Below are positions 1-23,582 of a stretch of DNA of 64,000 nucleotides, piece after piece (position 1 is the stretch's first letter; each line of letters starts with the position of its first letter). Origin of the DNA: Sedimentisphaeraceae bacterium JB056 (GTDB taxonomy: Bacteria; Planctomycetota; Phycisphaerae; Sedimentisphaerales; Sedimentisphaeraceae); assembly GCA_044440125.1 (NCBI GenBank), contig JBITAJ010000029.1:1-64000 (forward strand). Direction: 5' to 3'. The translations under genes were made by a program, and so were the position numbers. The notes under the pieces are model-generated. The model was given only the letters and a program-made list of their open reading frames with translations, made no database searches and was not told the DNA's origin.

Positions 1-32
1 TCGTTTGCATTAAATCCTTTAAGACTTGCCAT
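1..32 (-). CDS. 5' end of a gene running off the window (MASLKGFNAN...), probably a DUF669-like ssDNA-binding protein
   Basis: ATG at 32 with upstream AGGAG, overlapping the Sak4-like stop; N-terminus and position are typical of Sak4-SSB pairs. Confidence 0.5.
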   Translation of the reverse strand, partial: MASLKGFNAN

Positions 33-783
33 CTGTTATTTCTCCTGTGGTTGTGTTAATATTGTTTGAAAAATTCTTTTCAAGTCCCTCTGCTATAGCT
101 GATGTAAAACTATCCCAGCTAAATTCAATCTCAGGCGGCATGGAATAGCGGTTCTTTGCCAATGCTCTTGGTGTTTCAGAAGTGATCAGGATACGAGTAT
201 CCTCGTCAATCTTCTTCGCCAGACATACAAAATCGCTCCACTCGATTATCGCATTCAAGTGTTCATCCGGCAGATCCGGTGCTGTTTTCTCGATTACAAT
301 ACCGTCAATATCAGTAATCTCGGTTCGCTTGGCATGAGCCAGCAATATCACCGCTATACCCTTTGAAATAATCCTGTCAAAAAGCGGCAGTAATATCTGG
401 AAAATATAGTTTTTGAGAACTTGCTTACCATTGCCATATCCGCCATGGCTTCGGTTCAGTGTTGAATCTGTTTTACCGCCAGCACAACCTGAGACGTGCT
501 CCTCGATACGACGAACAAGCCAATCGATTGTGTCGACAACTACCACATGGTATGGATGCTCATCTCTCTCGATAGTCTGCAACCAGGCATGAATTTCAGT
601 CCAGGTGCCCAGGTATGGTGTCCTTACACACGCAATAGTTGCGGCACCATTCTCGCAGTCAATAATTAGCGAGCTGCCAGCTCTGGCAGCAAATGTGCTC
701 TTTCCACATCCTGCCTGACCATAGACAATACCTTTCGGCGGTGATGGTTTAGGGTTAGTAATAAGAGTGTTAAGTAACGTCAT
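19..783 (-). CDS. Phage AAA_24/Sak4-like P-loop ATPase (single-strand annealing recombinase family)
   Basis: Walker A GQAGCGKST, IIDCENG, Walker B VVVDTID, LLAH, AKNRY motifs. Confidence 0.85.
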   Translation of the reverse strand: MTLLNTLITNPKPSPPKGIVYGQAGCGKSTFAARAGSSLIIDCENGAATIACVRTPYLGTWTEIHAWLQTIERDEHPYHVVVVDTIDWLVRRIEEHVSGCAGGKTDSTLNRSHGGYGNGKQVLKNYIFQILLPLFDRIISKGIAVILLAHAKRTEITDIDGIVIEKTAPDLPDEHLNAIIEWSDFVCLAKKIDEDTRILITSETPRALAKNRYSMPPEIEFSWDSFTSAIAEGLEKNFSNNINTTTGEITDGKS

Positions 784-798
784 AGAAATACCTTCTGA

Positions 799-1221
799 TT
801 ATGGGTTAGTTATTTTTTTTGCAGCACTGAACACTTCAGAGAGTTCGGTCAGCTCTGAATATTTGCGTTCAAATGCACGTAACTCGTTTTTTGCTGTTCG
901 TAGTAACTCTTTCAGTCTTTCAGGGTCGCTTATCACATCTTCAATAAGTCGATACCCTCCAGTATCACGGTCACGATCCAAGCTCACATACATCCTGACT
1001 TCTTTGGGTTTTGTTTGGGGCAAAATGACTGTAATACGCCTTATCAAGGCTCTGCATTGTTCAATTCGCCATTTATGTGCCGCTGTAGTATCGTTCCAGT
1101 CAAATTCATCATGTAGTGGATTCGATTTTTCTTTTGCCTTTTCGACAACAACTTCAGGAAGCAACAAGCCTCCGTTTTCTTCTGCTATTCGTCGCAGCTC
1201 ATTTGTTTTTTCCGGTTTCAT
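799..1221 (-). CDS. Phage-type hypothetical protein, candidate accessory protein of the RAMP/array locus
   Basis: 140 aa with RBS (AGAAAGGG); SNPLHDEFDWND..AA..WR motif; directly downstream of array 1. Confidence 0.75.
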   Translation of the reverse strand: MKPEKTNELRRIAEENGGLLLPEVVVEKAKEKSNPLHDEFDWNDTTAAHKWRIEQCRALIRRITVILPQTKPKEVRMYVSLDRDRDTGGYRLIEDVISDPERLKELLRTAKNELRAFERKYSELTELSEVFSAAKKITNP

Positions 1222-1252
1222 TAAATCCCTTTCTGTATGTAAAATATTTAAT

Positions 1253-1374
1253 GCCTGCCGTACCTTGTCATGCCTGGCCTATCCACGCCTATCTTTGCCT
1301 TGAAAAGCCACTCCTGCCATGCATTGTCTCACCACGCAGTTCGATACCCCGTCTCGCCATGCCTCGCCTGCCAT
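1253..1374 (-). repeat. Array 1: 5-nt-periodic NN+GGY-like repeat with two full units (10 and 11 pentamers) delimited by GCAGG; putative guide RNAs
   Basis: Minus strand: ATGGC AGGC GAGGC ATGGC GAGAC GGGGT ATCGA ACTGC GTGGT GAGAC AATGC ATGGC AGGA GTGGC TTTTC AAGGC AAAGA TAGGC GTGGA TAGGC CAGGC ATGAC AAGGT ACGGC AGGC. Confidence 0.9.
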
Positions 1375-1377
1375 GTA

Positions 1378-2013
1378 TTAAACAATATCAAATAGTCCCC
1401 AACCCATACCAGCGGATTGCTTACTGTCTGGGCGACCTTCACCAACACCAACCTGTTGCCCAACTCTTAATAGCAGGTTTGCTATGTCCGAATTATCAAA
1501 CTGATCAGCATCCCAGCGAACGGTAACAACTGCTTCCCAACCGGCATCCCACATCGCTCTTGCCCGAAGATCACACACACCTGAAGCGATACGGACATGG
1601 CTCTCGTGATACCTCGGCTCACCCTTTGTAATCTTGACCAGAGGCGTCCCATCGTCCTTATCGAAACCATCTGGCAAAACAAAAACAGATAATTTGGCCT
1701 TTGTCATCGTGAACCCTGCAACCCGGCACGCACTGATCATCGCATTGCGAAATGCCGGAGCGGGGATTCCACACCAACCCTCTGGTGTCTTGTGTTGAGA
1801 CTGTTCAAAGCAGGCATCAAAATCTTTAGATTCTTTCTTGGTTCTATTCTTTGATTTAGAACCGGCTTCTTGCGCTGCGTGCATCTGTTCTTTGGCTTTT
1901 TTACTGAACTTGTTCTGCACATAGGGAGCTGTCCCACGAATTTTGAATTGTGCAACTTTTAAGTTTGGCGGGGCTATTACTGCCGACTCTATAATTTGTT
2001 GTTTGTTTGACAT
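1378..2013 (-). CDS. Stand-alone RAMP/Cas7-like protein (VIPR-like effector candidate)
   Basis: N-terminal strand FKIRGTAPY; GIPAPAFRNAM resembles the RAMP IPGSSLKGA motif; C-terminal Gly-rich loop GVGEGRP...GMGWGLF; flanked by periodic arrays. Confidence 0.75.
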   Translation of the reverse strand: MSNKQQIIESAVIAPPNLKVAQFKIRGTAPYVQNKFSKKAKEQMHAAQEAGSKSKNRTKKESKDFDACFEQSQHKTPEGWCGIPAPAFRNAMISACRVAGFTMTKAKLSVFVLPDGFDKDDGTPLVKITKGEPRYHESHVRIASGVCDLRARAMWDAGWEAVVTVRWDADQFDNSDIANLLLRVGQQVGVGEGRPDSKQSAGMGWGLFDIV

Positions 2014-2042
2014 TCTTTACCTTTCTGAATTAATTATGTGTA

Positions 2043-2064
2043 AAAGTCGGAAACCACCGACTTT
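2043..2064 (-). other. 8-bp hairpin between array 2 and the RAMP-like gene
   Basis: Minus strand AAAGTCGG-TGGTTT-CCGACTTT. Confidence 0.6.
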
Positions 2065-2092
2065 GGTTGAGGGTCGCTCCCCTTTATTTAAC

Positions 2093-2196
2093 ATCTTACT
2101 TTATCAGGTCTCGTCACGCCAAGCCTGCCTCGCCTTGCCGGGCATCGCTTTGTCTTGCCTCGTCACGTCGCGTCATACCATTCCTGCTTTGCTGTG
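2093..2196 (-). repeat. Array 2: 5-nt-periodic NN+GGY/GAC repeat with one full 11-pentamer unit plus partial units
   Basis: Minus strand: ACAGC AAAGC AGGA ATGGT ATGAC GCGAC GTGAC GAGGC AAGAC AAAGC GATGC CCGGC AAGGC GAGGC AGGC TTGGC GTGAC GAGAC CTGAT AAAGT AAGAT. Confidence 0.88.
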
Positions 2197-2994
2197 CTAA
2201 AATAAATCAAGAATCCGGACATCTTCAAATCGTGTCGGCCACAAATCTGACTCGATACAGTTCTTGAGCTCTTCAATATGCTGCTCGTTCTCATGCTGAG
2301 CTTCATCGAGTGCCATCTCCGATATCTTCCATACGCCGCATCGGAACGGCTCTCGTTTCTCGATAGCGACGATGTGAACGTCAGCTTGGATCCCGGATGC
2401 TTCTTTGAGTACTGCTCGATAGAAAGCAAGCTGGCTTATATAGCCGTACCGCCTCGCATCGAACTCAAATTTATCGAGCGAGTCGCAGGTTTTAAGATCA
2501 GCTATTCCTTTTTCGGGATTAAAGTAATCCATCCTGATCTGAGAAGGCAGTCCGCAATAATCAACACGGCAAACGCCTTCGGCGAAGCCTCCGGTTATCA
2601 ATGCGGGAGCAATTGGATGAGTTAAGACCTGATTCTGCATAAATTCAAGGGTAACAAGCTCTTCGCTGCTGATAACCGGCTTGCCAATCTCATCTGCCCA
2701 TGCAGCAAAGGCCTTGGTATTGGAGCCAAAGGGCTTGCCGGTTTTGGGATTTACAGGTCCGCCTACTGCATACTCATCCTCAAAAACTTCTCTTCCCTCA
2801 AGTATCAAGGTATGAGCGGCTCTGCCAAAGCTATAGCATTGCGAATCCCTGTCTTTAATAAGCCCGGTGAGTTTCTTAAAATACATAAGAGGACAATTAA
2901 TGAATTCGATAAGCTGATGGCTCGATAAATTCTCCTTAGCTTGCCAGTGGTAATAATCTGCCGGTTCTTCAATCAAATAATGAAATTTCTGCAT
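2197..2994 (-). CDS. PD-(D/E)xK nuclease, DUF3799/exonuclease VIII (RecE)-like
   Basis: LSSHQL, FGRAAH, RMD...ADLKT, Y..QLAFY, AIEK.EP motifs; start moved to ATG 2994 (RBS AAGGA). Confidence 0.85.
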   Translation of the reverse strand: MQKFHYLIEEPADYYHWQAKENLSSHQLIEFINCPLMYFKKLTGLIKDRDSQCYSFGRAAHTLILEGREVFEDEYAVGGPVNPKTGKPFGSNTKAFAAWADEIGKPVISSEELVTLEFMQNQVLTHPIAPALITGGFAEGVCRVDYCGLPSQIRMDYFNPEKGIADLKTCDSLDKFEFDARRYGYISQLAFYRAVLKEASGIQADVHIVAIEKREPFRCGVWKISEMALDEAQHENEQHIEELKNCIESDLWPTRFEDVRILDLF

Positions 2995-3027
2995 TGTGAT
3001 TCCTTTTAATAATATCGCCTTAGTAAA

Positions 3028-3057
3028 ATACATACCGTGTGAAACTCAAAAGTGTCA
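3028..3057 (-). promoter_or_regulatory. Putative element-specific promoter TGACAC-N15-GGTATGTAT
   Basis: Same motif and spacing recur at 23243-23272; both lie upstream of minus-strand element operons. Confidence 0.55.
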
Positions 3058-3570
3058 GATGTTTTCCATATAGATTTCAAGCCCGTTTTCCTTAAATGCT
3101 TTGCGAAGAGGATTTATGACTCTGTAATAAAAAGTTGATCTTTTAACTCCTGCTTTCTTCGCCGCATGGGTTATTCTTTCACTGCGGGCCAGTAATCTGC
3201 AGCCTTCCTGAAGCTCAGGGGTAAGAGAATTAACTGTTTCCTGAACATCTATCTGAAGTTGCAGGGACCGGCAATCATCGTTTTTATCAATGAAGTCATT
3301 GAAGATTCTCCCTGTTTCAGTAAAAGATCTGCATTTTTGCTCGGTTTTTCTGCGCGAGAGAATGTCAGATATTTTCTTCTGAAGTATGCATTGAACAAAT
3401 GTTGAAGTTTTGCCTTTTTCCGGATCATAGCTCTCTGCCTTTTTGAGAAGTTCCAGATAAAGCTCCTGCTCAATATCCTCTAAATCATTAATCCCTATTC
3501 CGCATCTGCCAAGAAGCAAAGATGCCTTTGTAGAAACAATCTTTCTGATGTAATCATCAATTTCAATCAT
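3055..3570 (-). CDS. Sigma-70/ECF-like sigma factor or regulator
   Basis: Region-2-like DLEDIEQEL...YDPEKG..STF; C-terminal HTH (ITHAAKKAGVKRSTFY). Confidence 0.7.
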   Translation of the reverse strand: MIEIDDYIRKIVSTKASLLLGRCGIGINDLEDIEQELYLELLKKAESYDPEKGKTSTFVQCILQKKISDILSRRKTEQKCRSFTETGRIFNDFIDKNDDCRSLQLQIDVQETVNSLTPELQEGCRLLARSERITHAAKKAGVKRSTFYYRVINPLRKAFKENGLEIYMENI

Positions 3571-3862
3571 AGCGTTCTTTCTTTCAATATGTCTGCACGA
3601 ATTTGCAAAACCTGTTATTTTAATCTAACTAAAACAGCCGTTTTACCTTTATTGAGCTCTCAGTTATTAATGTCGAAATTTCACGCTGATAGCTTTGGAA
3701 TTTTAAGCAGTAACATGGTCGGCAATGCTAAGGCGTTGTTATTTATAGTTTTGCAAAAAATAATAAATTTGAATATTTTTTGTTTTTTGCTGATTCTGAA
3801 AACGAAATTTCACGCAGTGAATTTTCACAGATTAAAATTCATGCAAATTATCTCTTAGACTA

Positions 3863-3890
3863 TTGACCTTTATTATAGAAGGTCTATAAT
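3863..3890 (+). promoter_or_regulatory. Sigma70 promoter of the repressor gene, overlapped by an inverted repeat (candidate operator)
   Basis: TTGACC-N16-TATAAT; GACCTT-N8-AAGGTC at 3865-3884. Confidence 0.6.
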
Positions 3891-3923
3891 AAAGACATGA
3901 TTACTTAGCAAAAGGAAAAGACT

Positions 3924-4544
3924 ATGGCAAAGAAGAAGCTGGCAATCACCAAACCTCAGAAGCAGGCATTGATAGAAATATGCCGCTTTATTGACGAAAA
4001 TGGTTATCCGCCTACTATAAAAGAGCTTGCAGATAACTTTAATATCGCCGCCCCCAGCATGAAAGACAGGCTTACTCATCTCATTAACAAGGGATATATA
4101 TCCATGAAAGCCAATAAAGGGCGAAGTATTAAGGTTCTTAAAAGACCGGCAGATCTGCCCAGGCAGATGATAATGATACCTGTTATAGGTGTTGTTGCCG
4201 CAGGTCATCCGATAATGGCTGAAGAAAATATTATCGGTGAGCTAATGGTAGAAGAGAATATTGTAGCACATGGAGAATATTTTGCGTTGAAAGTCTGCGG
4301 CAAAAGTATGGTGTGTGCGGGGATTAAAGACGGCTCTTTGATCATAGTCAAACGACAGATCTTAGCGGCAAACGGTGAAATTGTGATAGCTCTTCTAAAT
4401 GGCGAGGTTACTGTTAAAAGATTACTGATTAATGATTTAGGAATCAAACTCTTGCCGGAAAACCCTGAAATGGAGCCTATCGCAATAGACTATGATGATG
4501 ATTTAAAGATAATTGGTAAAGTAGTTGCCTGTAGAAACATATAA
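3924..4544 (+). CDS. lexA: LexA-family repressor (element-borne)
   Basis: wHTH GYPPTIKEL, cleavage site VAAG.P, catalytic G.SM and VTVKR. Confidence 0.9.
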   Translation: MAKKKLAITKPQKQALIEICRFIDENGYPPTIKELADNFNIAAPSMKDRLTHLINKGYISMKANKGRSIKVLKRPADLPRQMIMIPVIGVVAAGHPIMAEENIIGELMVEENIVAHGEYFALKVCGKSMVCAGIKDGSLIIVKRQILAANGEIVIALLNGEVTVKRLLINDLGIKLLPENPEMEPIAIDYDDDLKIIGKVVACRNI

Positions 4545-5463
4545 GAACACTGATGGGTTGAACCGACCTCTGGGCTATTGCAGCATGTCAAACCTAAGCC
4601 TTTTCAGGACAGAGGAGTTGCATCAGATGGAAATTAAAGAGCAGGAAGGTTTAGATTGGAAATTAAGAGCACATTCAGCAGCACAAATATACAAAAGGTT
4701 TGAGAGTTTTGAGCCGGGATTGTTGACCGAGTTGATCAAGAATCTTCATCTGTGGGCATCAATCTTACCGCAGGTATATGATGATATCGGGATATACCAT
4801 CCGGTAAACAGTTCCGGGCTCTCACCTGAGGTTACTGAGCTTTCTGCGATAATCGATGAGCTGATATTAAACGGCAGTGATCAATTGGCTAACTGCCTGC
4901 AAAACAAGCTTCAGAGCCTACAGGAATCAGCGTCTATGCTTGATCAGGTATATCCGATTCATACAAATACTCAGCGTTTTGAAGAATTGAGACTCACCGA
5001 TATATGCCAGAGAAAGGCTGAGCTGTTGTGCAGCTATCTCTATAAGCTCAAAGAGAGGTTATTTGAGATAGCTTCCAGTGAAAAGATAGACTTACCAGAC
5101 CAGAAGCAGGAAAAAATGTCACTATCCGAGGTTCCTTGGGAGGACATTGAAATATGCTTTATAGACGGTCATACCGTTTCTATAAAAGCGGATAATAAAT
5201 CCCAGATCTATACGTATGTTCAAATGTCAATGTCCAGTAAACACAACGGACACCCGACCAAACAGTGGCTGCTGCTCGAAGCCTTTGCCCAGACCGGCGG
5301 CAGGATAAGCTGGAAAGACCCGCAGTCTAATACGAATCTGCGAAAACAAAAACAGCTTCTTTCGAGAATCCTGAAAGATTTCTTCTGCAAAGAAACTGAC
5401 CCTATCGATTGGCTCAGAGAGCAGAAATGCTATTGCTGCAGGTTTGGGATATCAATCAGATAA
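4525..5463 (+). CDS. Hypothetical protein, possible C-terminal winged-helix domain; start uncertain
   Basis: 312-aa ORF following lexA. Confidence 0.65.
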   Translation: MPVETYKNTDGLNRPLGYCSMSNLSLFRTEELHQMEIKEQEGLDWKLRAHSAAQIYKRFESFEPGLLTELIKNLHLWASILPQVYDDIGIYHPVNSSGLSPEVTELSAIIDELILNGSDQLANCLQNKLQSLQESASMLDQVYPIHTNTQRFEELRLTDICQRKAELLCSYLYKLKERLFEIASSEKIDLPDQKQEKMSLSEVPWEDIEICFIDGHTVSIKADNKSQIYTYVQMSMSSKHNGHPTKQWLLLEAFAQTGGRISWKDPQSNTNLRKQKQLLSRILKDFFCKETDPIDWLREQKCYCCRFGISIR

Positions 5464-5481
5464 TCATTTATTATAAGCGAA

Positions 5482-7470
5482 TCAGTTTCCAAAAGTACAC
5501 TTTAGTAATTTACCAGAGTCATCACGTCCGTGAAGTCTTAAACGAACAAAAGGTCTTTGATTGATTTCAGTTAGCGGTTGAGATGTCGTTGTAAGGATGT
5601 ATTGAAAACTAATATTATTGTCGTCTTTGTGACACATCTCAATATCTCGCACAAAACGTAAGATTGAATAATATAGCTCATCCTCGCTGTCTGCTTGCCG
5701 AGGACTGTCATGTATAAGCAACCTTGGCATATAACCAACTCCACAAATAGATGCAGCCAGGCATGCTAAATCGTAGCTTAATACATCAGCGTAAGTCCTA
5801 AGTGTTGTTCCAGAATCAGATACTACATTACTGGGTTTGGGGCGTATTCCTTTCCCATCAATTATAATTTCTCCACTGGCATCAGGGGCGACTATTTTCT
5901 GTAATACCAAGGAATAGTATTTTGAAAGGCGTTTTCTTTCTTTATTCATTTTTGATCGATATTTATTTTGTACGACTAATGAATCTGATATTTTTTTCTT
6001 AGTACTCTCGTGATCATTTTTATATTTATCCAGTTGTGACCATGCTGCACGGTATTGCTTGGCTTGTTTAGATCTTGTCTCCCATAGAGAAATCTTCTGA
6101 TTAACATTATCTCTCTTAATTATCAGATTGCTTTCCAGATCCTTTTGGATATGCTTGTTTTTGCCTATCTCTGATTTTATTTCGTTTTGTCTTTCATTGA
6201 GCCAAACTAACCTTATATTCAATGCTGTTAGTTCAGACCTTATCTCTCTTACGATTCTTTTTCTTTCGGGATCAACAATCTCGTGGTTTTGTATGTCTTT
6301 TCCAGGACATCCTGCATTCATTGCCTTTTCTTTTTTATCAAAGAACAAGCAACGCCATCTTGCACTTAATAGGTCTTTTATAAGAGCATCATCATCTTGT
6401 TTTTCTTTTTGTTCAAGCTCGACTTGTTTTAATTTCATGCTATTTTTTTTGTCATTAATTTCCGCTTCAATAGCACCATTTTCTTTAGTCAAATCCTCTA
6501 TTTTTTTTCTGATATCACATATCTCTGCATATTTAGAAAAGTCAGGGTCTCCAAGCAATCTTTTAAGACTCTGTATTTTTTCGTCTGCAATCTCCTTAAG
6601 CATTTCGCCAAATAATTCACCATGAATAGCGTCTTTAACTTCCTCTATTGAATTACGGAGCTGAATTTCCGTCTCATTAATGAAATTTTCATATCGTTTA
6701 GCATCTCGTTCAAAACGGTCTCTATCAATCAATAATTTACGATGAATTCCCATTTGTGATGTTTCTTCAGGATGTAAAAGCCCTAAAGCCATTTTCATTA
6801 CCAAATAAGCATCTTCTCGAGTAAGCACTCTGGAACCTGCTTGAGCATCAGTGATTCGCCAGTCTGCATGATGAGCAAAATGACAATCCTGATCTCTGCT
6901 CAGCCATCCCAATAAATCTTGCCAACAAGCTTTTCTATAATCAGCATGCGGCAAACCAATATCAGCGTAACAGTTTTGGGTTGCTTTATTAATGGCATTT
7001 AGAAATATTTCATATTTGAGACGTGAATCTTTGCGTAACAACTCATTCAATCTATTTGACTTTATGCACCATGAACAAACGTGGCCGGATTCAAGACCAA
7101 GTGGACGAGCAACACTCCAAGTTTGTTTATCCACTCTAATTTGCGCCAATACATAAGCATGTTCCAATTTGTTTGTAATTGCACTTCGTAATGTATCTGT
7201 GCAGTATCTTTTTTCACCAAGACAATACCGAATTATGCGAACCAATAAGGATTTCCCGACACTATGCCCAACCGTATGCACATCGCGAGATGTTCGTTTT
7301 TCAGTACATATAAGATTTAACCCACGTTTAAATCTTATTTTGCGAATGACTCGTATAGGCTTTTCAGTGCTTTCAATTATAACAAGCTTTTTGATCCAAA
7401 TTGCAGGTTCATCAAAATTACAAACCGGCTCTATAAATCCTTCAGGAAAAAGAAAATTCGATCTCTGCAT
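5482..7470 (-). CDS. SMC-like ABC ATPase of ABC-three-component/Lamassu (LmuB-like) type
   Basis: Walker A GHSVGKS, long coiled coil with C-x14-C, C-terminal LIHDSPR and FQYILTT; ATG at 7470. Confidence 0.75.
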   Translation of the reverse strand: MQRSNFLFPEGFIEPVCNFDEPAIWIKKLVIIESTEKPIRVIRKIRFKRGLNLICTEKRTSRDVHTVGHSVGKSLLVRIIRYCLGEKRYCTDTLRSAITNKLEHAYVLAQIRVDKQTWSVARPLGLESGHVCSWCIKSNRLNELLRKDSRLKYEIFLNAINKATQNCYADIGLPHADYRKACWQDLLGWLSRDQDCHFAHHADWRITDAQAGSRVLTREDAYLVMKMALGLLHPEETSQMGIHRKLLIDRDRFERDAKRYENFINETEIQLRNSIEEVKDAIHGELFGEMLKEIADEKIQSLKRLLGDPDFSKYAEICDIRKKIEDLTKENGAIEAEINDKKNSMKLKQVELEQKEKQDDDALIKDLLSARWRCLFFDKKEKAMNAGCPGKDIQNHEIVDPERKRIVREIRSELTALNIRLVWLNERQNEIKSEIGKNKHIQKDLESNLIIKRDNVNQKISLWETRSKQAKQYRAAWSQLDKYKNDHESTKKKISDSLVVQNKYRSKMNKERKRLSKYYSLVLQKIVAPDASGEIIIDGKGIRPKPSNVVSDSGTTLRTYADVLSYDLACLAASICGVGYMPRLLIHDSPRQADSEDELYYSILRFVRDIEMCHKDDNNISFQYILTTTSQPLTEINQRPFVRLRLHGRDDSGKLLKCTFGN

Positions 7471-10400
7471 AATCTTCCACCTCACAATAATCATCTAAAA
7501 TCAAATTCGTATCGTTTAATTTTCTAATTGCTTTTAAGCACTCTTCAGCTTTATGGAAAGCTTTATTCACTCTTTCGTCGTTTAATTTATTGCCCAGTTC
7601 TAAGGCATTTTTGCCTAAGCTAATAAGTTGTCTTTTGTCACGCGTCTCAATTATAACGGTATCCGTTCCCGCCAATTCCCCAAGAAATTCATCAAAATTT
7701 ATAAAGCAGGGTTGTTTATTTGATTTAGTAGTGTCTTTTTTTATCTCTAAATTTGCAACTCTTCTCCTTAGCTCATCTCTTTGCATCAACAACATGCCGA
7801 CTTCAAAGGCTCGCCTATCTACCGATTTATTCCAAACATAAAGCAATGCTAAGGCATCAAGAATAGCCATTGCATGCTCAATTTTTTCGGTATCAATAGT
7901 TGAATTCTGATGAAGTATATGCGATGTCTGACTATTAGTATTATTAAGAACAATTATCTTGTCAAACATTCTACGTATATAAGTATGCTTATCTTCTTTC
8001 ATAAACAATACATTACGGTTATCCAAATCGGATTTACTTACCGTAGTGCCAATCCAGTTTATTTCCAGATATCTGGATTCGGATATTATAAATGAATTTA
8101 GAACAACGTCTGGATCGTTTAGTCTTGTTTCAATTTCTTTTATCTTCTTATGGAATTCTATTTTAGCATCCTTTATACCGTTTAAATTACGCAACCCCTT
8201 AGGATCAACAAAACTGATATGCTGTTTATTCTCAGCAACAAGCCATACTATGAAATCAGGATAGAAATTTCCTGCTTCAAAAAAGCCTACACCTTTGCCT
8301 CTGCTTCTGTTTCTTAATATATAAAGTTGTTTGTCTGCGAAGTATTCTTCATTGGAACGGCAAAAAGTTTTAATATCCAACAGGAAATTCTTTTCGCTAT
8401 CGACAAGAGCCACCGGTTTTATTTCAACATCACAATCAGGGGTTTTCCAGAGAAGAGGCTGATACAGGTGATTATTGAAAGCTATCGAATTAAATCCGGG
8501 CAAATCTATATCCAGTTTAGTAAATTCAGCCGGTTCAAGCTGCTTTGATTCTATTAGCTTCTTCACCTTTTCAAGTTTGGCTATAATATCTCGTCTGGAA
8601 GCATTTATCGCGAATTCATATTCTTTTACAAAATTAGGATCATCTGCTCTAAGCTCTCTATATTCAAGATGCTCTTTTTCCCAATTAGCTTTCTGATTTT
8701 CGTAGCACCTATTTGTATACTTTTTCAGAAGTGCAACCGCCAGCTCCTGCCACCGGGGTACTTTTGTAAAACTGTCAAAGGCCAGCTCTTTAGCCGGTAT
8801 ATATACCTTATACCATTCGGTATCATCTAATAATCTTTTAAGAACATTTCTGTCTATATTAAGATTATACCATGACCTTTCATTTTTGTATCGAATAAGC
8901 TCGAAGTATATCTCATCAATATTCAACAAACTAACATGATCGGGTGTAAGGCAGCCAACATCCGGAATACCTTCAGCAACAGCGGCAGTAGCTGAATAGC
9001 TCATGATAGACTGCACCTTTGGATACCAGTTGATCTCGATGGGCCTTCTTTTAAAATCCCTATCGGGCAATCCAAGTGTAGGTTTTGGTGCCTGCTTTTT
9101 ATAGCTTACTCCTTCTTTCAGCTTTATTGTCTTAAGCTTGACTTTACCGAGATTATTCAGTACCGGCAAAATAAATTCGATCTTGTCGCCATCGACAGGC
9201 AGCCCCTGTTCTTTCAGATATTCTTTGAACTGGCTCATATAATCAGCGTGGATACCAAAAATATTCAGTGTCTCCAGCATACTTATATAATCAGGAGCTT
9301 TAGCTCCGACCGTTTTGCTGCTACGTTTTAGGCTGAAATCAAGACCTTTAAGCCTTACGCCTCTGCCGAAAAGCTGTATAATCTGGGAGCCTTCATTTTT
9401 GCCTATATTCATAAGCCCCATTGTACTTACACGCCAGCTGCTCCAGCCCTCGGTAAACTTTCTCGAACCTATCAGAAGATTGATATTAGAAGATTCCGAA
9501 TTTATATTTCTAAAAAGCGATTTTGAAAACGGCTCATCACTAACCACCATTTGCTTGTGTTTTTCACAAAGTTTGCAAAGTTTGTCAGAATCACCAACAT
9601 TTATAACCCCGAAAGGCTCGTTCTCTCCTAAAGATAAGGCGATCTCGCCATCGGAGCCTTTAAGATTTCTGACGTGAAGCAGACCGGCAGAATTGGAATT
9701 AAAAAGTGTTCGCAAGACATCGTTATATAATTGGGCAGGCTCGGTATCATTCATAGAAGCCAGATAAGTGAAATTTGTACTGAGCAGATCACTGCCCCGG
9801 CTATTCAGAAGCCCGCTTTTGCCTTTGAGGAAATCATCAATGAAGCTTACAGATTGCTTACTGTTATTGGCGAATTCAGCTAAAAACAACAGTATATCAA
9901 TGATATCTGACACATCTTTCTTGCTTATAGTCTTCGTAACGCTGCTGCCGACAAAAATCCAAAGAGGCTTCTCAATAAGAAACTTTTTCAATTCACTTCG
10001 CTTATCATTGAACAGTTTTTGCTGCTGATAAAACGCCATCAGGCAAGCTGTGAGATATCTCACTCGTTGCTGTTGGTCGCGGTCATCTTCAAGGTTGAGA
10101 ATACGATAATCCTTGCCGTAACCATCCTCATAAAAAAACTTGTAGGAGTAGTCAAATATAATACTCTTGGCATACGTGTTAATAAGCTTCTTGTCTTTTT
10201 TGACTGCCTGGCCGAATGTGGCAGAATATTCGAATGAAAACCCATTTTCACAAAGGCAGTTTCTTCGCTCCATCCATTTTCCGCTGCTTCCGCCTGATGT
10301 GCCTCTGTGGCCTTCGTCGATGAGCACAAGATTATTGTCTTCAAAGGCTTCCACGGCGATAGTCTTATCTCCGGAGGTATCCGAGAGTTTGGATATTTCT

Positions 10401-11116
10401 ATGATCTCTACAGGTTTATCATTTAAATGCGTTAGAGGCATACTGCCTGCTTTATCAAATATATCGCCAGTTAAACCAGAAAGTGTCAGTTCTTCATTAT
10501 GCTGATTGCTGAGCCCTTCGTTTGGCGTGAGTAATATTACCTTATTGAGCTCTTTATGCATATTCTCTCTTGCCAGATAATATTTGTATTGCAGGATATT
10601 GATATGCATCAGCAGTGTTTTGCCCGAACCGGTAGCATTCCAGAGCGATATCTTGTTGAGATTTTCAATGTTGAAAGCTTCAATCCTCTCCTTCTCCGGC
10701 AGCTTCTCGTTAAAAGAATCGAGATATCGGTTGAGATCATCAAGGAGCTTTTCTTTGCTTGTGAAATATCTGTCAAGATAAATTTCGGTAAACAGCAAGC
10801 TGAGATACTGGAAATATTTAGGATAAAGCTTTTTGCCGTTGGCTTCCCTCTTTTCGGTTATCTGTTTCCAATAACGCACAATCCTCTGGTCATATTTAGC
10901 AAGCATATCAGAGGTAATCTCCACGCGGTCAAAAAGCCTCGCCGTCAAGACGCCGTAATAACGTGAAAAACCGTCTTCTGTGATACAGTCCTCGTCAAAT
11001 CCTTTAAGCCCGTAAGAGAGCTCCTCGATATTTTTGACTTCGAATAAACTCAAAAGCCAATTGAAAAGAACAAGCTTCTCACTGAAATGCATTGTTTTTT
11101 TAGTTCTTTTTGCCAT
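7442..11116 (-). CDS. Type III restriction endonuclease Res subunit with C-terminal extension
   Basis: ATGSGKT, DEGH, YSATF, FTEGW, QLFGRGVR helicase motifs; FYPDF..FVDPKG nuclease; ~165 extra residues. Confidence 0.9.
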   Translation of the reverse strand: MAKRTKKTMHFSEKLVLFNWLLSLFEVKNIEELSYGLKGFDEDCITEDGFSRYYGVLTARLFDRVEITSDMLAKYDQRIVRYWKQITEKREANGKKLYPKYFQYLSLLFTEIYLDRYFTSKEKLLDDLNRYLDSFNEKLPEKERIEAFNIENLNKISLWNATGSGKTLLMHINILQYKYYLARENMHKELNKVILLTPNEGLSNQHNEELTLSGLTGDIFDKAGSMPLTHLNDKPVEIIEISKLSDTSGDKTIAVEAFEDNNLVLIDEGHRGTSGGSSGKWMERRNCLCENGFSFEYSATFGQAVKKDKKLINTYAKSIIFDYSYKFFYEDGYGKDYRILNLEDDRDQQQRVRYLTACLMAFYQQQKLFNDKRSELKKFLIEKPLWIFVGSSVTKTISKKDVSDIIDILLFLAEFANNSKQSVSFIDDFLKGKSGLLNSRGSDLLSTNFTYLASMNDTEPAQLYNDVLRTLFNSNSAGLLHVRNLKGSDGEIALSLGENEPFGVINVGDSDKLCKLCEKHKQMVVSDEPFSKSLFRNINSESSNINLLIGSRKFTEGWSSWRVSTMGLMNIGKNEGSQIIQLFGRGVRLKGLDFSLKRSSKTVGAKAPDYISMLETLNIFGIHADYMSQFKEYLKEQGLPVDGDKIEFILPVLNNLGKVKLKTIKLKEGVSYKKQAPKPTLGLPDRDFKRRPIEINWYPKVQSIMSYSATAAVAEGIPDVGCLTPDHVSLLNIDEIYFELIRYKNERSWYNLNIDRNVLKRLLDDTEWYKVYIPAKELAFDSFTKVPRWQELAVALLKKYTNRCYENQKANWEKEHLEYRELRADDPNFVKEYEFAINASRRDIIAKLEKVKKLIESKQLEPAEFTKLDIDLPGFNSIAFNNHLYQPLLWKTPDCDVEIKPVALVDSEKNFLLDIKTFCRSNEEYFADKQLYILRNRSRGKGVGFFEAGNFYPDFIVWLVAENKQHISFVDPKGLRNLNGIKDAKIEFHKKIKEIETRLNDPDVVLNSFIISESRYLEINWIGTTVSKSDLDNRNVLFMKEDKHTYIRRMFDKIIVLNNTNSQTSHILHQNSTIDTEKIEHAMAILDALALLYVWNKSVDRRAFEVGMLLMQRDELRRRVANLEIKKDTTKSNKQPCFINFDEFLGELAGTDTVIIETRDKRQLISLGKNALELGNKLNDERVNKAFHKAEECLKAIRKLNDTNLILDDYCEVEDYAEIEFSFS

Positions 11117-11126
11117 TTATATAAAA

Positions 11127-12863
11127 TTACCCGTATATTTCGGATCTCAATTTATCAAAGATAATTTGCCTTCTTGCTTCTAAGAAAGGTTCAAAATTGT
11201 CTGAATTCCACAACGTTTCATCTGAAGGAATATTATGAATTCTTAAATAGTCATTACGTCTTATAATATCAGCACCAAATACGTTTTCTATCCAATCTCC
11301 AAATTCAGTAGCCTGTTTGCTTCTATTATCACTGAAATACAAGTATTGATAATTGCCAAGATTATTAATGATACTCCAGTCATAACCTTTTTCACTCAAA
11401 ACTGATTTTGGATGAATATGATCTATATCATTTTGCCTAAAATTATCAGGTCTGCCATAGATCATATAAATGACTAAGCGTCTGTCATACCAATTAAGCC
11501 TTTCCCAGCTATCCTTAATATCTTCATCAAAAATATGTAAAGAATGATTTCTGTAAACATCAAAAATCTTTTCAATAGGGAAACATTCACCTTTATGGTC
11601 TTTTATTACATTTAAGATTTTGTTTCTTCCAGTCTTCTCAGGCACCCATCCATTGCCTCGTCTGAAGACATTGTTAAGATACGACACAATTAGCCATCTC
11701 TTCAAAGTGTGAAAACTTTCATTCCTTGTTTCACTATTATCAAAATAGTTCGCCAGATTTTCATCAGAGACATTTGAATGAAATAAATGATACGCAACAA
11801 ACGTCAATGGAATAATACTTGGACGACAATTAATACAATATTCATACAATTTTGAATTTTTCAAGAACTCTCTTGTTGCAACCAGACTTTTTCTTAATCT
11901 ATCTCCTTTGTGTTGAATAAAATCTGAGTCTTTTTTATCAATATGGACTATATCTTTTTGGGAATTATCTTGTAACAAAAATACGAATTTTATTATTTCG
12001 TCTTGGTTAAATCCAATATCTATAAATTCATCCCTGACATTATTTAAGAAAGTTTCATTATCCGCGTTATACGCTTTGAACACTGACCTCATTAGCTCCA
12101 ATCCAGTCAATATCGTACCACCTTGATTCAGCTTTTGAAAAAGTCGAACAATCTTAAGTCTACTGGCAGTTTTACTATCTTTTCTATCTATTGGAACTCC
12201 ACACATCCCTACAATTTGAGTTGTAAAACATGCAACCTGAAATTTATATAAAACCTTCTCAATTCTTTTGCAATCTTCATCACTAAGTTCATCATTGTTC
12301 AGTCCGTTAATAAGACTGTCACTGAATGAGCTATGATCATAGCCATAATATTCAAAGTCGCTATAAAGTTTAGCGGCAGAATACCATTGTGGTTTTCTTT
12401 TCTCTTCGCCGCTAAAGGTATCTACAGTTGATGGAAGTGAGTTAAAATCCTTTGCAAAGTAAAAAACAAAATCATTATGCTCATACTCACTTAACAAGTC
12501 AATAAAAAGAGTTTCATGATTGTATGTCCCCTTTAATCCAATATAAAATGCCGATAGTCTCTGCTGCCCATCAATTACATAAGTTGTCTCTTTATCTAAC
12601 CTTTCAAAAGCACTTGAAACAGGAAGTTGTCCTTCAATATAGTCTTTATTGAATTTTCTAAACTCAAATAAAGGAACTTTATTTGCAGGATCTATTACTG
12701 TCATAATACCACCGAAAGAGTCTCCCTTTAATATTGTTTCAAAAAGAGAAACCATCTTATCCTGCTTCCAAACAAGTTCTCTCTGGATCACAGGAAGAAC
12801 TACGTCACCTTGTTCAATTTTAACAATAACATCTTTCAGTGTTTCAGATTTCCATGTTGCCAT
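11127..12863 (-). CDS. GmrSD-family (DUF262 + HNH) modification-dependent endonuclease
   Basis: LPVIQRELVW, IDGQQRL, FQKLNQGG, DIDHIHP..N.LGN..N.SK; AT-rich. Confidence 0.85.
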   Translation of the reverse strand: MATWKSETLKDVIVKIEQGDVVLPVIQRELVWKQDKMVSLFETILKGDSFGGIMTVIDPANKVPLFEFRKFNKDYIEGQLPVSSAFERLDKETTYVIDGQQRLSAFYIGLKGTYNHETLFIDLLSEYEHNDFVFYFAKDFNSLPSTVDTFSGEEKRKPQWYSAAKLYSDFEYYGYDHSSFSDSLINGLNNDELSDEDCKRIEKVLYKFQVACFTTQIVGMCGVPIDRKDSKTASRLKIVRLFQKLNQGGTILTGLELMRSVFKAYNADNETFLNNVRDEFIDIGFNQDEIIKFVFLLQDNSQKDIVHIDKKDSDFIQHKGDRLRKSLVATREFLKNSKLYEYCINCRPSIIPLTFVAYHLFHSNVSDENLANYFDNSETRNESFHTLKRWLIVSYLNNVFRRGNGWVPEKTGRNKILNVIKDHKGECFPIEKIFDVYRNHSLHIFDEDIKDSWERLNWYDRRLVIYMIYGRPDNFRQNDIDHIHPKSVLSEKGYDWSIINNLGNYQYLYFSDNRSKQATEFGDWIENVFGADIIRRNDYLRIHNIPSDETLWNSDNFEPFLEARRQIIFDKLRSEIYG

Positions 12864-12928
12864 AATTACAATTTCCCATTACTTAATAAATCTATTCATC
12901 CCTGTTTATCAACCCCATCTGCTAAGTG

Positions 12929-15853
12929 CTAACTGTCAAACATCCGCTTCGCAAATTCTTCCTCGATCAGCCGCACCTTCCATGTATCCTCGTCGCGTTT
13001 GAGGTTTTCGAGGTTGTTGTCGCCGTTCACGTATATCGTGTCGAATTCCATATCCAGCGGATTGTATCTCATCTTACGGCAGAAGTCATCAAGCGTGTCG
13101 TTGTCCTTTTCCTTAATATTACGCCATATTACCAGAATCTTCTCTCCGTCGAGATTAGTGCCGGTTATCACCTTAAAGCCCTGGATCGTCTCCATGGTCG
13201 CCACTTTCAGCCCTATAAGATAACTGAACGTCTCAATAATATCTATCCTCACCGGCTTTGTCTCGCCGACGCTGCCGGTAGTTATATTAAGCTTATAATC
13301 AAACGGGTTCTCGAAATCCGTTACATTCAACAGGCTCCCCCTGCTCTCAACATCGAGCATATAGCCCAGCATATAACTTTCGCGAAGCTCATCATTTTGA
13401 GCGAAAAGCGAACGCCGCTTCTGGCCTTCTTCGAGAACAAGATTATTGAGCGTATCCTCATAGCTCTCAAGACGGATATACTTGAAGCAGTGGCTGACGC
13501 CCGTATCTCTGGCGGCAGGATTGCCTGCTTTCCAATCTTTTGAATAAATCACTTTCTGAATTCGAGGCTTCAATACAGTATCGAAATAATCTCCCATTTC
13601 AACAAGGATATATTTACGGCTGCCGTCGTCCTGTCTGTTTAAGTTTATCACAGCATGACCGGTTGTGCCTGAACCAGCGAAACAATCAAGAATCAATTTA
13701 GTTGACAAAGAAGATTTAAGTATCCTATCTATTAAGCATAACGGTTTCTGTGTCTCAAATCCGATTCTCTCACTATCGTTTGCAGAAAGTGGCTTAATCT
13801 TATCGTCTATCCAAAAATCTCCAACAGGATTACCTTCTTTTTCATCAAGATATCGCTTAACACGAGGAGTGCCATTTCTTGTAAAGATAATTCGGTTATC
13901 TTTTATTCCTTCGTTAATTTTATCTTGCCCCCATATCCAATGTTTTCCTGGAGGTGGCTCGATAAGATTACCATTGAATAATCGGGCTTCACCTTGCCCT
14001 TTTTGTGTAAAATCAAAAGAGCCATATTTTCTTCCTGTTTCTTCTTCTATATACGGATAGTTAGAATCGTCTTTTTTAGAATCAATAAATATCTTATTAA
14101 GTATCATTTCTGAAGACTTTCTAAATACCATTACTTTTTCATAGATATTTGAAAAATATGTACTTTGTTTTTTTGCCGCTGTCAATTTTTGCCAGACAAT
14201 TTCATTAACATAATTATTATTGCCAAAAATTAACTCAAACAATAATCTTAATTCATGCCACTCATCTTGATCAATACTGCAAAATAAAGGGGCTTTTGAG
14301 TCCATAATTCTCATCAATAATTTTGCTCTATCAAACATCATTGAAAGCCAACTTGAATGTTGGTATGAGTCTTTGTAAGGGAAATTGTCATCATTACCTG
14401 TATTATAAGGTGGATCAATATAGACACACTTCACCTGTTCCCGATATCGCACTTGCAACAGGTTTAATGCCTGGAAGTTTTCAGAATTGATTAGCAGTCC
14501 ATCGCATTGTTCATCTATATTATCGATTGAGGCTAAGAGTTTCTCTTTAAAAGCTTCATGAAAAAACTTTGTATCAACGACGAGTTTGTCGTTTTGTTTG
14601 AGAAAATCGATGGAGAGCGGCTCAGAATAACCGGCGGCTGCTTCTTCGACTAAATCACCCTTGCCCGGCTTGATCTGGTCAATAGCAAACAATTCCACCC
14701 ATTCATTCCGCTGGGCATCGTTTGCGGCTATTTCGGGGTATAGCTCGGTCGGCACTCTGTCGAGCGTTATGCAGTAGTTTGTCTCTGTAACGAATTTCTT
14801 TTTGAGCCAGAGCTTTTTCTGAAAATCCTCAAGCTGTGCGAGGAAAGTAATAATCTTTGAGGCGACCTTTCGCATAGCCTTCACTTTTGAGAGATAGCTT
14901 TCCACCTTCGCCGCGTCTTCGTCTTCGATATCATCGAGATGAACAACTTCGTTTTTGATGTAAAAATCCAGCTCACGGCGGAGGAATCCGCCGAGGTCTT
15001 TATGGATGAAGTAGTCAAAGGTGTTTCTCGAAGTGAAATCGTTTATGTGTTTTTCCAGAAGGGTGCGGTTTTTATTAGCGCCCGTAGGCATTGGAATTTG
15101 CAGAGAATTCTGGATATCGCCGGGCAGACCGGCGGCAAGGATATGCTCGAGAGTCTCTCTGTTAAGCTCTGCTTGATTTACAGAATTACCCAGGGGAAGA
15201 TAATTAAAGCCGATTACCAGCTCGTCGCCTTCAATAGAGAAGAACGGGCTTTCAGAGAGCGAGAATCTTCTTTCTTTGCCGGAAGCTTCTTTTATATTGT
15301 CCTTTTCAACACCTGCCTCTTTCACCTTGAAGTGCACGCTCTTGCCGCAGGAGAGATTGAACCTGTAGTTTTTGAAATACTCGCTTGTCTTGATATAATA
15401 CTGGTCCTGGTTGGCCCAGTAAAGCTTTACTTCCTCACCTTCATAGGGTATGGCATAAACGCCTTCTTTGTATCTGCGAAGAGAAATAAAGTCGCCGTCT
15501 TTGTAGTAACGGCTGAAGAAGCTGTAGAGATGGGAATACACTTCGTTTTCCAATCCCTCAAGGTCGGCTTTCTTTGCCCGTAGTTCCATAACCTTGGCGT
15601 TGGTATCCGGGTCGATCCCAAGCTCTCGTGCATTGGCTATTGCCTTCTGGAGCTGGTCGTTTACGGCGGAAGTGTTATGATCATTGAGTATCTGCCGCAC
15701 TTGGGGCAAAAGATCTTTCTCAAGAAACTGCGTAATCTGAGACCGGCGGGAATTCATAATACGATAAATCCCAAAATCCAGATCCTGCCGATCAAGCATA
15801 AAAAGCTCTTTAAGCTTTGATATCAATTTGTTAAAAGTTCTCGTATCTTCCAT
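12929..15853 (-). CDS. Type III R-M adenine DNA methyltransferase (Mod)
   Basis: YIDPPYN, TQKP, DCFAGSGTT; AT-rich central target-recognition domain. Confidence 0.92.
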   Translation of the reverse strand: MEDTRTFNKLISKLKELFMLDRQDLDFGIYRIMNSRRSQITQFLEKDLLPQVRQILNDHNTSAVNDQLQKAIANARELGIDPDTNAKVMELRAKKADLEGLENEVYSHLYSFFSRYYKDGDFISLRRYKEGVYAIPYEGEEVKLYWANQDQYYIKTSEYFKNYRFNLSCGKSVHFKVKEAGVEKDNIKEASGKERRFSLSESPFFSIEGDELVIGFNYLPLGNSVNQAELNRETLEHILAAGLPGDIQNSLQIPMPTGANKNRTLLEKHINDFTSRNTFDYFIHKDLGGFLRRELDFYIKNEVVHLDDIEDEDAAKVESYLSKVKAMRKVASKIITFLAQLEDFQKKLWLKKKFVTETNYCITLDRVPTELYPEIAANDAQRNEWVELFAIDQIKPGKGDLVEEAAAGYSEPLSIDFLKQNDKLVVDTKFFHEAFKEKLLASIDNIDEQCDGLLINSENFQALNLLQVRYREQVKCVYIDPPYNTGNDDNFPYKDSYQHSSWLSMMFDRAKLLMRIMDSKAPLFCSIDQDEWHELRLLFELIFGNNNYVNEIVWQKLTAAKKQSTYFSNIYEKVMVFRKSSEMILNKIFIDSKKDDSNYPYIEEETGRKYGSFDFTQKGQGEARLFNGNLIEPPPGKHWIWGQDKINEGIKDNRIIFTRNGTPRVKRYLDEKEGNPVGDFWIDDKIKPLSANDSERIGFETQKPLCLIDRILKSSLSTKLILDCFAGSGTTGHAVINLNRQDDGSRKYILVEMGDYFDTVLKPRIQKVIYSKDWKAGNPAARDTGVSHCFKYIRLESYEDTLNNLVLEEGQKRRSLFAQNDELRESYMLGYMLDVESRGSLLNVTDFENPFDYKLNITTGSVGETKPVRIDIIETFSYLIGLKVATMETIQGFKVITGTNLDGEKILVIWRNIKEKDNDTLDDFCRKMRYNPLDMEFDTIYVNGDNNLENLKRDEDTWKVRLIEEEFAKRMFDS

Positions 15854-15893
15854 TATATATCCAATGTTGTTTTTATTCAGTTGATTTGCCTAT

Positions 15894-17576: not shown

Positions 17577-17582
17577 TAAAGT

Positions 17583-20609: not shown

Positions 20610-20999
20610 TCAAATAAGGTTCTCTATTAGTTTCCTTTGCTTTTGCCAATCTGGCTCAAGTGCTATTTTCTGTAAGACTCGAACGGTAATTTCATCGCGT
20701 CCTTTGACTGTTTGCGGCAGATAAAGCAACTGTTCCTGAATATCAGGGGCAAGAAGAGTAAGATTCATAATTTGAGTCATTCTTGCCCTTGTAACCCGGC
20801 ATTCTCTGGCAAGCTGGGCAAGGTCAGACGCTTGTCCGTTTCTAATCATATGCTCAAATTCTATAGCCAAAGCCATGAGTTTGCTTACTCTCTGCAGTTT
20901 ACCGGCAGGACGTTTGCGAGATGTGCCTGATTTAATAATCTGCTTGGTTTTAGGATTTCGCTGAATGTGAAACTTACGACTTACAGTGAAAGCTTTCAT
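20610..20999 (-). CDS. Recombinase-associated HTH protein
   Basis: LA...VTRARMTQIMNLTLLAPDIQE motif typical of genes downstream of DUF2924-linked recombinases. Confidence 0.75.
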   Translation of the reverse strand: MKAFTVSRKFHIQRNPKTKQIIKSGTSRKRPAGKLQRVSKLMALAIEFEHMIRNGQASDLAQLARECRVTRARMTQIMNLTLLAPDIQEQLLYLPQTVKGRDEITVRVLQKIALEPDWQKQRKLIENLI

Positions 21000-22971: not shown

Positions 22972-23051
22972 ACGTAAAAACTCCTGTTTAAACCTGAAAA
23001 AAGTCAATTTTACTACTGTCTATTAATCACTATTTAGGCTTAAACATCCAG

Positions 23052-23189
23052 TTAACTCTTGGAAGATTTAGAGAGTTTTTGACTATTTTTTGAACTGTTA
23101 AAATGGTTCTTAAGAGCCTTAGTAAGTATTGCAGCAAGCAGCTCTTTGCGACTTTTTGAAGACTTAACAACAGAAGCAGACTGAAGCAT
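23052..23189 (-). CDS. 45-aa small protein (MLQSASVVKSSKSRKELLAAILTKALKNHF...) leading the recombinase operon
   Basis: Strong RBS AGAGGAG 4 nt before ATG; lies between the putative promoter and DUF2924; not in the ORF track. Confidence 0.45.
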   Translation of the reverse strand: MLQSASVVKSSKSRKELLAAILTKALKNHFNSSKNSQKLSKSSKS

Positions 23190-23242
23190 TTTACTCCTCT
23201 AATGAAAACTTGAACTTTGAGAAATGTGCGATCCATTGATAC

Positions 23243-23272
23243 ATATATACCTGATTTTTCCGAAAAGTGTCA
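23243..23272 (-). promoter_or_regulatory. Second copy of the putative element-specific promoter, TGACAC-N15-GGTATATAT
   Basis: Matches 3028-3057. Confidence 0.55.
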
Positions 23273-23575: not shown

Positions 23576-23582
23576 TATCAGG

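Follow-up and report, generated by a model that had tools for sequence, protein, structure and literature searches.

VIPR (Viral Interference Programmable Repeat) systems were first described in 2026, and most of what is known of their natural targets comes from two clades. As set out in the text of the founding report (10.64898/2026.04.26.720920), their protein component is Vipr, a small RAMP-fold protein with an RRM core, a glycine-rich loop, and a thumb. It is accompanied by an accessory gene (vap) and by vrRNAs built from GGY/NN pentamers, which form arrays of 9 to 16 beside vipr on its strand. The NN dinucleotides pair with DNA, mostly in coding sequence, leaving one skipped base, usually the wobble base, between pairs, and transcription is silenced. 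The same text names competing phages, satellites, and prophages as the known targets and distinguishes seven types with vap1 to vap6 (10.64898/2026.04.26.720920). Experimentally characterized examples belong to type II and come from Escherichia phage SUSP1 and from a Pseudomonas fulva prophage, whose guides target resident prophages (main text of 10.64898/2026.04.26.720920). In this type, which carries vap1, each vrRNA stands alone and ends in a conserved 3' tail with a hairpin or pseudoknot; those of SUSP1 are about 100 nt long, and their tails are pseudoknots. Residue W178 of the SUSP1 protein stacks on G2, according to the text of the structural report (10.64898/2026.04.26.720927). Within the SUSP1 family, vrRNAs directed at vipr genes and at vrRNA loci fit relatives better than the carrier's own homologue, which the text of the corresponding report takes as avoiding autoimmunity while hitting competitors (10.64898/2026.10.15.759431).

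Here, we describe a locus in a window of 64,000 nt (the whole stretch of DNA analyzed) from Sedimentisphaeraceae bacterium JB056, which forms the start of contig JBITAJ010000029.1, hereafter C29. With high probability, one vrRNA of a VIPR cassette has its guide at positions 1316-1365, and the cassette would target the alleles of rival elements, likely silencing them and sparing its own. The RAMP fold, the GGY/NN arrays, the hypervariable NN pairs, the coding targets matched with a 1-nt skip, and the adjacent vap are all present.

Compared with the staggered-array VIPR outlined in the legend of fig. S18 of the founding report (10.64898/2026.04.26.720920), the locus is alike in its RAMP protein with accessory gene, its 1-nt vrRNA overlap, and its wobble skip. 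It differs in having about half of its constants non-GGY, in carrying three (perhaps four) guides, and in targets that are alleles of its own neighbors. The code, the array-vipr-vap-array order, and an alignable G-loop are shared with type II, whereas the overall sequence similarity to SUSP1 is very low. The locus falls outside that type, with tailless guides instead of separate tailed vrRNAs and a vap showing no similarity to the neighboring 146-aa gene of SUSP1. As to its VIPR type and vap number, the text, legends, and supplementary PDF of 10.64898/2026.04.26.720920 contain no type table; its data S1-S4 and figures may list the clade. The better fit of guides to relatives than to the carrier's own homologue is common to the SUSP1-family case and the present one, but the guides described here target the recombination genes Sak4 and exonuclease. 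The words Sak4, annealing, and exonuclease are absent from 10.64898/2026.10.15.759431, "recombin" is absent from the text of 10.64898/2026.04.26.720920, and Sak4 and exonuclease are absent from the supplementary PDF of the latter. The protein fold seen here is also that of Class 1 CRISPR Cas7/Csm3 filaments, with which VIPR has in common the single protomer per guide repeat and the periodic base flipping, as the text of 10.64898/2026.04.26.720927 describes them. In contrast to CRISPR, the window lacks CRISPR repeats and adaptation genes, its period is 5 nt and not 6 nt, and the target is gapped. An Rfam scan of the window at gathering thresholds returned one tRNA only, and PADLOC returned nothing for vipr or vap, which places the locus outside CRISPR-Cas.

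The cassette, its proteins, and its carrier

The cassette lies on the minus strand in the order array U, vipr, array D, and vap and is placed between the exonuclease and Sak4-like genes (Table 1). Its 5-nt period runs on the minus strand, on which every gene between 19 and 3570 is encoded. Stretches with at least 8 of 10 units in phase occur only at 1309-1373 and 2115-2189 when both strands of the 64 kb are scanned (background maximum, 5), and these two window arrays are the only ones to pass the scan in the whole 4.54-Mb genome. The only other pick of a strict pentamer scan in the genome, at G000:C5:6610-6674, was a short GGTTTCATAAGGCA-like unit of about 15 nt repeated in tandem, which does not resemble a vrRNA array. 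Rfam had no family for the arrays at the gathering threshold nor at an E value of ≤5 (positions 1-4000).

Table 1. Features of the cassette, its carrier element, and the sibling element (window positions unless a contig is named)
Feature	Position	Strand	Remarks
Sak4-like ATPase (own)	19..783	minus	AAA_24, PF13479 E 5.8e-31, phrog_124
vap-like partner, 140 aa	799..1221	minus	phrog_15946
Downstream array region (intergenic, 156 nt)	1222-1377	minus	pentamer period
End of downstream array	1222..1257	minus	CAggc ATTAAAT..., runs into partner gene start
vrRNA B	1257..1316	minus	12 units, NN = CA / GT TT AA AA TA GT TA CA AT / AA AC
vrRNA A, whole	1316..1370	minus	11 units, boundary unit CAggc first
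vrRNA A, variable region	1316..1365	minus	10 NN+constant pentamers, NN = GA AT GA GG AT AC GT GA AA AT
vipr, 211-aa RAMP/Cas7-like	1378..2013	minus	phrog_4652, no Pfam family
Upstream array region	2014-2196	minus	pentamer period
Terminator-like hairpin	2043..2064	minus	AAAGUCGG-loop-CCGACUUU then U; between array U and vipr start
U2, candidate fourth unit	2078..2127	minus	NN TT GT GA CT AA AA GT, constants decaying
vrRNA U1	2127..2186	minus	12 units, NN = CA / AT AT GC GT GA AA AA GA CC / AA GA
PD-(D/E)XK exonuclease (DUF3799, own)	2197..3033	minus	
LexA/S24-type repressor	3924-4544	plus	divergent from leftward sigma-exo-VIPR-Sak4 operon
LmuB-like/PDC-M68B protein	5482-7494		
Type III restriction enzyme	7442-11116		
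GmrSD-N/HEC-05 protein	11127-12863		
Type III methylase	12929-15853		
AbiU/AIPR	15894-17576		
DrmD-like SNF2 helicase	17583-20468		
Large serine recombinase	20996-22486		
DUF2924 gene	22483-23007		
tRNA	23583-23655	minus	
Sibling exonuclease	C27 312687-313553		40 nt from Sak4
Sibling Sak4	C27 313594-314358		no cassette between exonuclease and Sak4

Read on the minus strand from 1365 to 1316, with constants in lower case, guide A is GAggc ATggc GAgac GGggt ATcga ACtgc GTggt GAgac AAtgc ATggc. Base 1316 is both the last base of vrRNA A and the first of vrRNA B, a staggered overlap of 1 nt. In related loci, each vrRNA likewise opens with CAggc, the first C being the last base of the preceding unit. 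Vipr is 82-83% identical in the two closest relatives, L256 and L257, and these two, together with 18 further loci, have the same CAggc-led architecture with unrelated NN pairs. In A, B, and U1, the match to targets is carried by the nine NN pairs that follow the constant CA, while the final one or two units (AA AT, AA AC, and AA GA) have no match or match by AA alone. These final units may act as a 3' handle, because many relatives close their units with AAggc. The candidate unit U2 is perhaps merely the 3' end of the upstream array; scored as a fourth guide, it matched nothing in the genome or in relatives better than the shuffled null did. A terminator consensus scan gave no call for the hairpin at 2043-2064, and folding of the array region revealed nothing significant, the guides abutting with their 1-nt overlap and without tails between them.

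Vipr has 5241 homologues. Its AF2 model (pLDDT 82.5, pTM 0.76) matched 62 PDB chains by Foldseek at an E value of ≤0.001, with Csm3/Cas7 proteins of types III and VII at the top (E 8e-6, TM 0.40-0.46), and a sequence search of PDB gave nothing meaningful (best E 0.42). The invariant C-terminal residues of the family are G189-G191-E192-G193-R194-P195 and G202-G204-W205-G206. An hhalign comparison with the 195-aa protein of SUSP1, which we infer to be its Vipr from the place of the gene between GGT/NN arrays, aligned 57 columns covering the G-loop only (E 7.8e-5, probability 62%), with GVGEGRPD in the window Vipr and GVGDWRPR in SUSP1. The window residue aligned with W178 is Gly. A tblastn search of phages with Vipr did not recover SUSP1, and with this query Vipr was not found in 6 of 6 other genomes of the same taxonomic family, two of them just 86-88% complete. 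A homologue of the partner gene follows vipr directly in 18 of 18 related loci; its AF2 model is helical (pLDDT 85.3), and no PDB match was found for its fold at an E value of ≤0.001.

Members of the Vipr family also occur elsewhere among phages. Cyanophage Cy-LDV1 (L011, BK059895.1; 3980-5547) encodes an unannotated Vipr-clade member, g34, that is 58% identical to the window protein, with CAggc-led arrays at locus positions 4627-4808 and 5434-5547. Additionally, 27 Mycobacterium and 5 Gordonia phage records hold Vipr homologues of 30-36% identity annotated as "hypothetical protein"; arrays were checked in Cy-LDV1 alone. In the closest metagenomic relative (L257, 1-727), the cassette comes after a gene with a RecT-like product, judged by eye. 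The cassette may be placed in recombination modules of differing kinds.

The cassette sits in an integrated temperate element, bounded by a large serine recombinase with DUF2924 beside a tRNA; positions 20996-23655 are likely its integration end. A near-consensus promoter (TTGACC, 16 nt, TATAAT) is present at 3863-3890, and the same element carries defense cargo at 5482-20468.

Guide targets in viral relatives and in a sibling element

The earlier note, made from the letters of the window, had listed the dinucleotides of guide A, and rereading the minus strand gave the same list. Decoded NN-skip-NN, they had been aligned with the carrier's own Sak4-like gene at 312..286 (minus; GAT ATT GAC GGT ATT GTA ATC GAG AAA, DIDGIVIEK), where 7 of 9 dinucleotides and 15 of 18 bases agree in codon phase. 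This alignment holds as it was given, and the decoding is the 1-nt skip rule published for VIPR, as worded in the text of 10.64898/2026.04.26.720920. The accompanying estimate of ~3e-7 per position was about four times too low for the DNA of this window. Scored at a 1-nt skip, as were all guides here, the own-Sak4 site is the top guide A match within the window, a score that is not above chance: 15/18 was reached somewhere in the window by 29 base-shuffled and 77 order-shuffled guides, out of 500 of each kind, and the whole genome contained 10 matches at this level against a null mean of 12. The near-match is informative because the site is orthologous to the true target, that is, through homology and not because of its score.

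The same note had inferred that the true target lies in a related element whose Sak4 orthologue encodes DIDGITVEK, and exact sites were indeed found in such orthologues. A scan of viral_contigs with GAnATnGAnGGnATnACnGTnGAnAA returned seven loci, four of which (L001, L002, L003, and L005) carry the exact site at the orthologous codons of Sak4 homologues that are 67-68% identical to the window Sak4 and read ...TDIDGITVEKT.... The reversed-order control pattern returned eight loci, none of the eight in Sak4 or exonuclease homologues, and the expected enrichment over a control guide was thereby confirmed. The first nine NN pairs of guide A match the Sak4 genes of L001, L003, and L005 at 18/18. 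In genome_contigs, the guide A matches were mostly chance: of the 80 loci fetched from a total of at least 119, a single one was in a Sak4 homologue, and its contig is titled as a Pirellulales MAG.

The other two guides gave comparable pictures. Exact matches of guide B in viral_contigs numbered 14, 4 of them in Sak4 orthologues; the other 10 had no Sak4 homology, and in-frame stops lay beside the site in 8 of these 10. With the leading CA, guide B matches 20/20 in L001, L005, and the sibling element on contig C27 described below, and 19/20 in L003, on codons for QVLKNYVYQI or QVFKNYVYQI. Guide U1 had 83 exact loci in viral_contigs, and 72 of the 80 fetched were in homologues of the DUF3799-type exonuclease (27-62% identical). 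The peptide at its site is (I/M)(I/M)AVEK(N/K)EP and holds an E-x-K, which, from PD-(D/E)XK enzymes in general, we take to be the catalytic motif of the nuclease. With the leading CA, U1 matches 20/20 in L005 and the C27 sibling, 19/20 in L001, and 18/20 in L003, on exonuclease codons for HIIAVEKKEP. All three perfect sites are found on one contig (L005/L036/L110), and the A, B, and U1 matches are all in codon phase, with the wobble as the skipped base.

The gene order in these relatives is sigma-like, exonuclease, Sak4, SSB, RusA, and helicase, with nothing between exonuclease and Sak4. Neither Vipr nor Vap was found in the 3-kb flanks of any of the 22 viral-contig Sak4 orthologues, which were collected by homology, and each of the five closest of these carries at least two perfect targets. 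A megablast search of phages with window positions 1-8000 gave no match.

Furthermore, the same assembly contains a second element of this kind at the end of contig C27, with a sigma-like gene and without Vipr or an array; the genome has one Vipr gene only. Scanning both strands of the genome, with 20 order-shuffles per guide, placed the best guide A match (17/18) at C27:314065, encoding DIDGITIEK, and single 18/18 matches of guides B and U1 at C27:313957 and C27:313377, respectively. The best matches of all three guides thus fall inside C27:313377-314090 (~700 bp), and their NN letters equal the sibling at 53 of 54 positions. The shuffles reached 18/18 in no case and had a mean of 0-0.1 matches at 17/18.

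Both C27 and C29 end 18 nt beyond the Sak4 stop codon. The C29 end shares 132 identical bases with the ends of C13 and C14, and the C27 end aligns with it. Of the latter two contigs (L127, L128), C13 carries SSB, RusA, and a 928-aa primase/helicase, and C14 carries SSB, RusA, two small genes, and a 579-aa helicase; they are two alternative continuations of the siblings, and the assembly assigns neither to the VIPR-bearing element. In Logan contigs from a run that may be the source of the assembly, the unitig depth was 50.8 for the cassette, 46.8 and 45.7 for the two variants of the shared exonuclease segment, and 87-100 for the shared ends. Therefore, the two elements are about equally abundant (~1:1). 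It is likely that both reside in one cell, although the assembly may be a metagenome bin. The two elements are mosaic, with 141 nt at the 3' end of Sak4 identical and exonuclease nt 91-296 nearly identical, and the target sites lie in diverged patches.

Self alleles, rival readings, and eroded constants

In the carrier's own genes, the near-matches are 15/18 for guide A (Sak4, 286-312), 15/18 for guide B or 17/20 with the leading CA (Sak4, 394-423), and 14/18 for U1 or 16/20 with the leading CA (exonuclease, 2347-2376). NN identity at these sites is 78-85%, which is close to or above the 80% that the text of 10.64898/2026.04.26.720920 gives as its target-calling threshold; in the sets described there, no self-targeting was seen at ≥80%. 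No figure for mismatch tolerance was found in the VIPR reports cited here. The own copies differ from the target alleles at three to four NN positions, all conservative (T>V, V>I, Y>F, I>V, and K>R): T163V, V164I, V127I, and Y128F in Sak4, and I222V, V224I, and K227R in the exonuclease. At several of the replaced positions, conservation is otherwise strong, T being present in 20 of 21 orthologues and Y in 21 of 21. For Sak4, the conserved columns at which the window copy has a rare residue numbered 2 of 12 inside the guide sites and 6 of 94 outside (P = 0.22). The corresponding exonuclease counts (2/7 versus 8/105) are invalid as a test, the set having been collected by exact U1 match, and the pooled P value of 0.057 is likewise unusable. 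The target sites show a divergence between own and relative copies that the whole genes show as well. Because of this typical divergence and the P value for Sak4, directed escape is not supported, and the guides may simply exploit existing divergence. From the allele differences at the guide sites, we infer that self alleles are spared.

Flank near-matches as a habit of the clade are not supported. Among 144 distinct guides of 27 related loci compared with their own flanks, there was no excess; one of the 144 scored above all 60 of its shuffles, and the best score was 15/18, in two cases. Since none of these guides shows the pattern, the window locus is unusual within its clade.

The constants of the arrays are eroded. 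Only 18 of 35 triplets are GGY (A, 6/11; B, 7/12; U1, 5/12), and GAC, TGC, GGA, AGC, CGA, TTC, and AGA are among the others; counted over the array units, each constant position (G, G/A, C/T) is about 80% conserved. Such erosion coexists with NN pairs that are nearly identical to the sibling. Either Vipr tolerates triplets such as GAC, TGC, or GGA, or selection differs between the kinds of position. Because GGY is retained in so few units and GGY substitutions abolish silencing in SUSP1 (fig. S12 legend of 10.64898/2026.04.26.720920), the cassette could be weakened or dead. Taken to its end, this would make the cassette a relic, whose arrays once guided Vipr and are now inactive through erosion, the NN matches recording past function. 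The almost wholly GGC constants of L256 and L257 and the decayed look of U2 are in line with such a history, which we nevertheless regard as improbable: neutral decay would strike the NN pairs as well as the constants, and the vipr and vap reading frames are intact, with the invariant G-loop residues of the family present. Moreover, other VIPR clusters have noncanonical constants, namely, GAC/NN and TGH/NN (text of 10.64898/2026.10.21.760802), and internal degeneracy of vrRNAs is frequent according to the methods text of 10.64898/2026.04.26.720920.

A much less probable reading is autoregulation, in which the own Sak4 and exonuclease sites are functional targets and the carrier operon is under weak, tunable repression. 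The best in-window matches of all three guides do fall in the two flanking genes, with scores (15/18, 17/20, and 16/20) at or near the calling threshold. However, these own sites are fully explained by homology to the perfect matches in relatives and sibling, the own score of guide A is ordinary for the genome, and neither the sets described in the text of 10.64898/2026.04.26.720920 nor the guides of related loci point to self-targeting. The idea of a TRAP-like array, in which the pentamers bind an oligomeric RNA- or DNA-binding protein and the Sak4 match, not significant taken alone, is coincidence, is refuted by three independent guides with unique, perfect or near-perfect, in-phase matches in orthologous genes of relatives and sibling, where controls were empty.

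Proposed mechanism and meaning for element conflict

We therefore return to the reading of a VIPR cassette directed at rival elements. Matching by letters assigns guide A to the Sak4 codons DIDGITVEK, guide B to the Sak4 codons (Q)VLKNYVYQI, and guide U1 to the exonuclease codons (H)IIAVEKKEP, and the putative target alleles are demonstrably those of VIPR-less relatives, including the sibling in the same assembly. With the published mechanism as a model, the arrays would be transcribed with the leftward early operon and processed, and each Vipr protomer would take one pentamer, hiding the constant triplet and exposing the NN. The resulting filament would pair its NN with codon positions 1 and 2 of the target gene, skipping the wobble base, and an R-loop on double-stranded DNA would block transcription. 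The block would extend in a polar manner to the rival's SSB, RusA, and helicase genes, so that its exo-sak4-ssb-rusA-helicase operon would be silenced and that of the carrier spared. The VIPR-bearing element would gain when both elements are induced or when a relative superinfects.

It is conceivable, but rather unlikely, that the cassette and its diverged flanking alleles form one linked killer-plus-immunity module. In that view, every guide is aimed at the ancestral allele of a gene flanking the cassette; in the empty sibling, the guide sites lie 177 nt upstream and 360-500 nt downstream of the insertion point. Any recombinant in which cassette and immune flanks became separated would have its own recombination and replication operon silenced, as would siblings without a cassette during mixed infection or co-induction. 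In a more daring version, R-loops formed to either side of the empty site would stimulate gene conversion, copying cassette and flanks into the sibling in a homing-like manner; the mosaic of identical and diverged tracts fits ongoing exchange between the two elements. As a general arrangement, such a module is disfavored by the 144 guides of the 27 related loci and would be a special case.

It is important to consider that, if read as a VIPR cassette directed at rivals, this locus extends the known cases beyond the characterized type II clade, with a target that was predicted from sequence and then found. What is unusual is the combination of guides aimed at alleles of the genes flanking the cassette, a target co-resident in the assembly, and eroded constants. 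The three allele pairs (17-18/18 NN for the target against 14-15/18 for self) bracket the discrimination that VIPR must achieve. U1 sits on the codons of the presumed catalytic ExK motif of an exonuclease family that is widespread in phages. Its exact matches on 72 diverse phage contigs suggest a broad-spectrum guide, at a place where escape would be costly. If the target element truly shares the genome, the pair would be a natural system for prophage-against-prophage silencing. The locus thus offers a natural test case for self/nonself discrimination by VIPR and for conflict between prophages.
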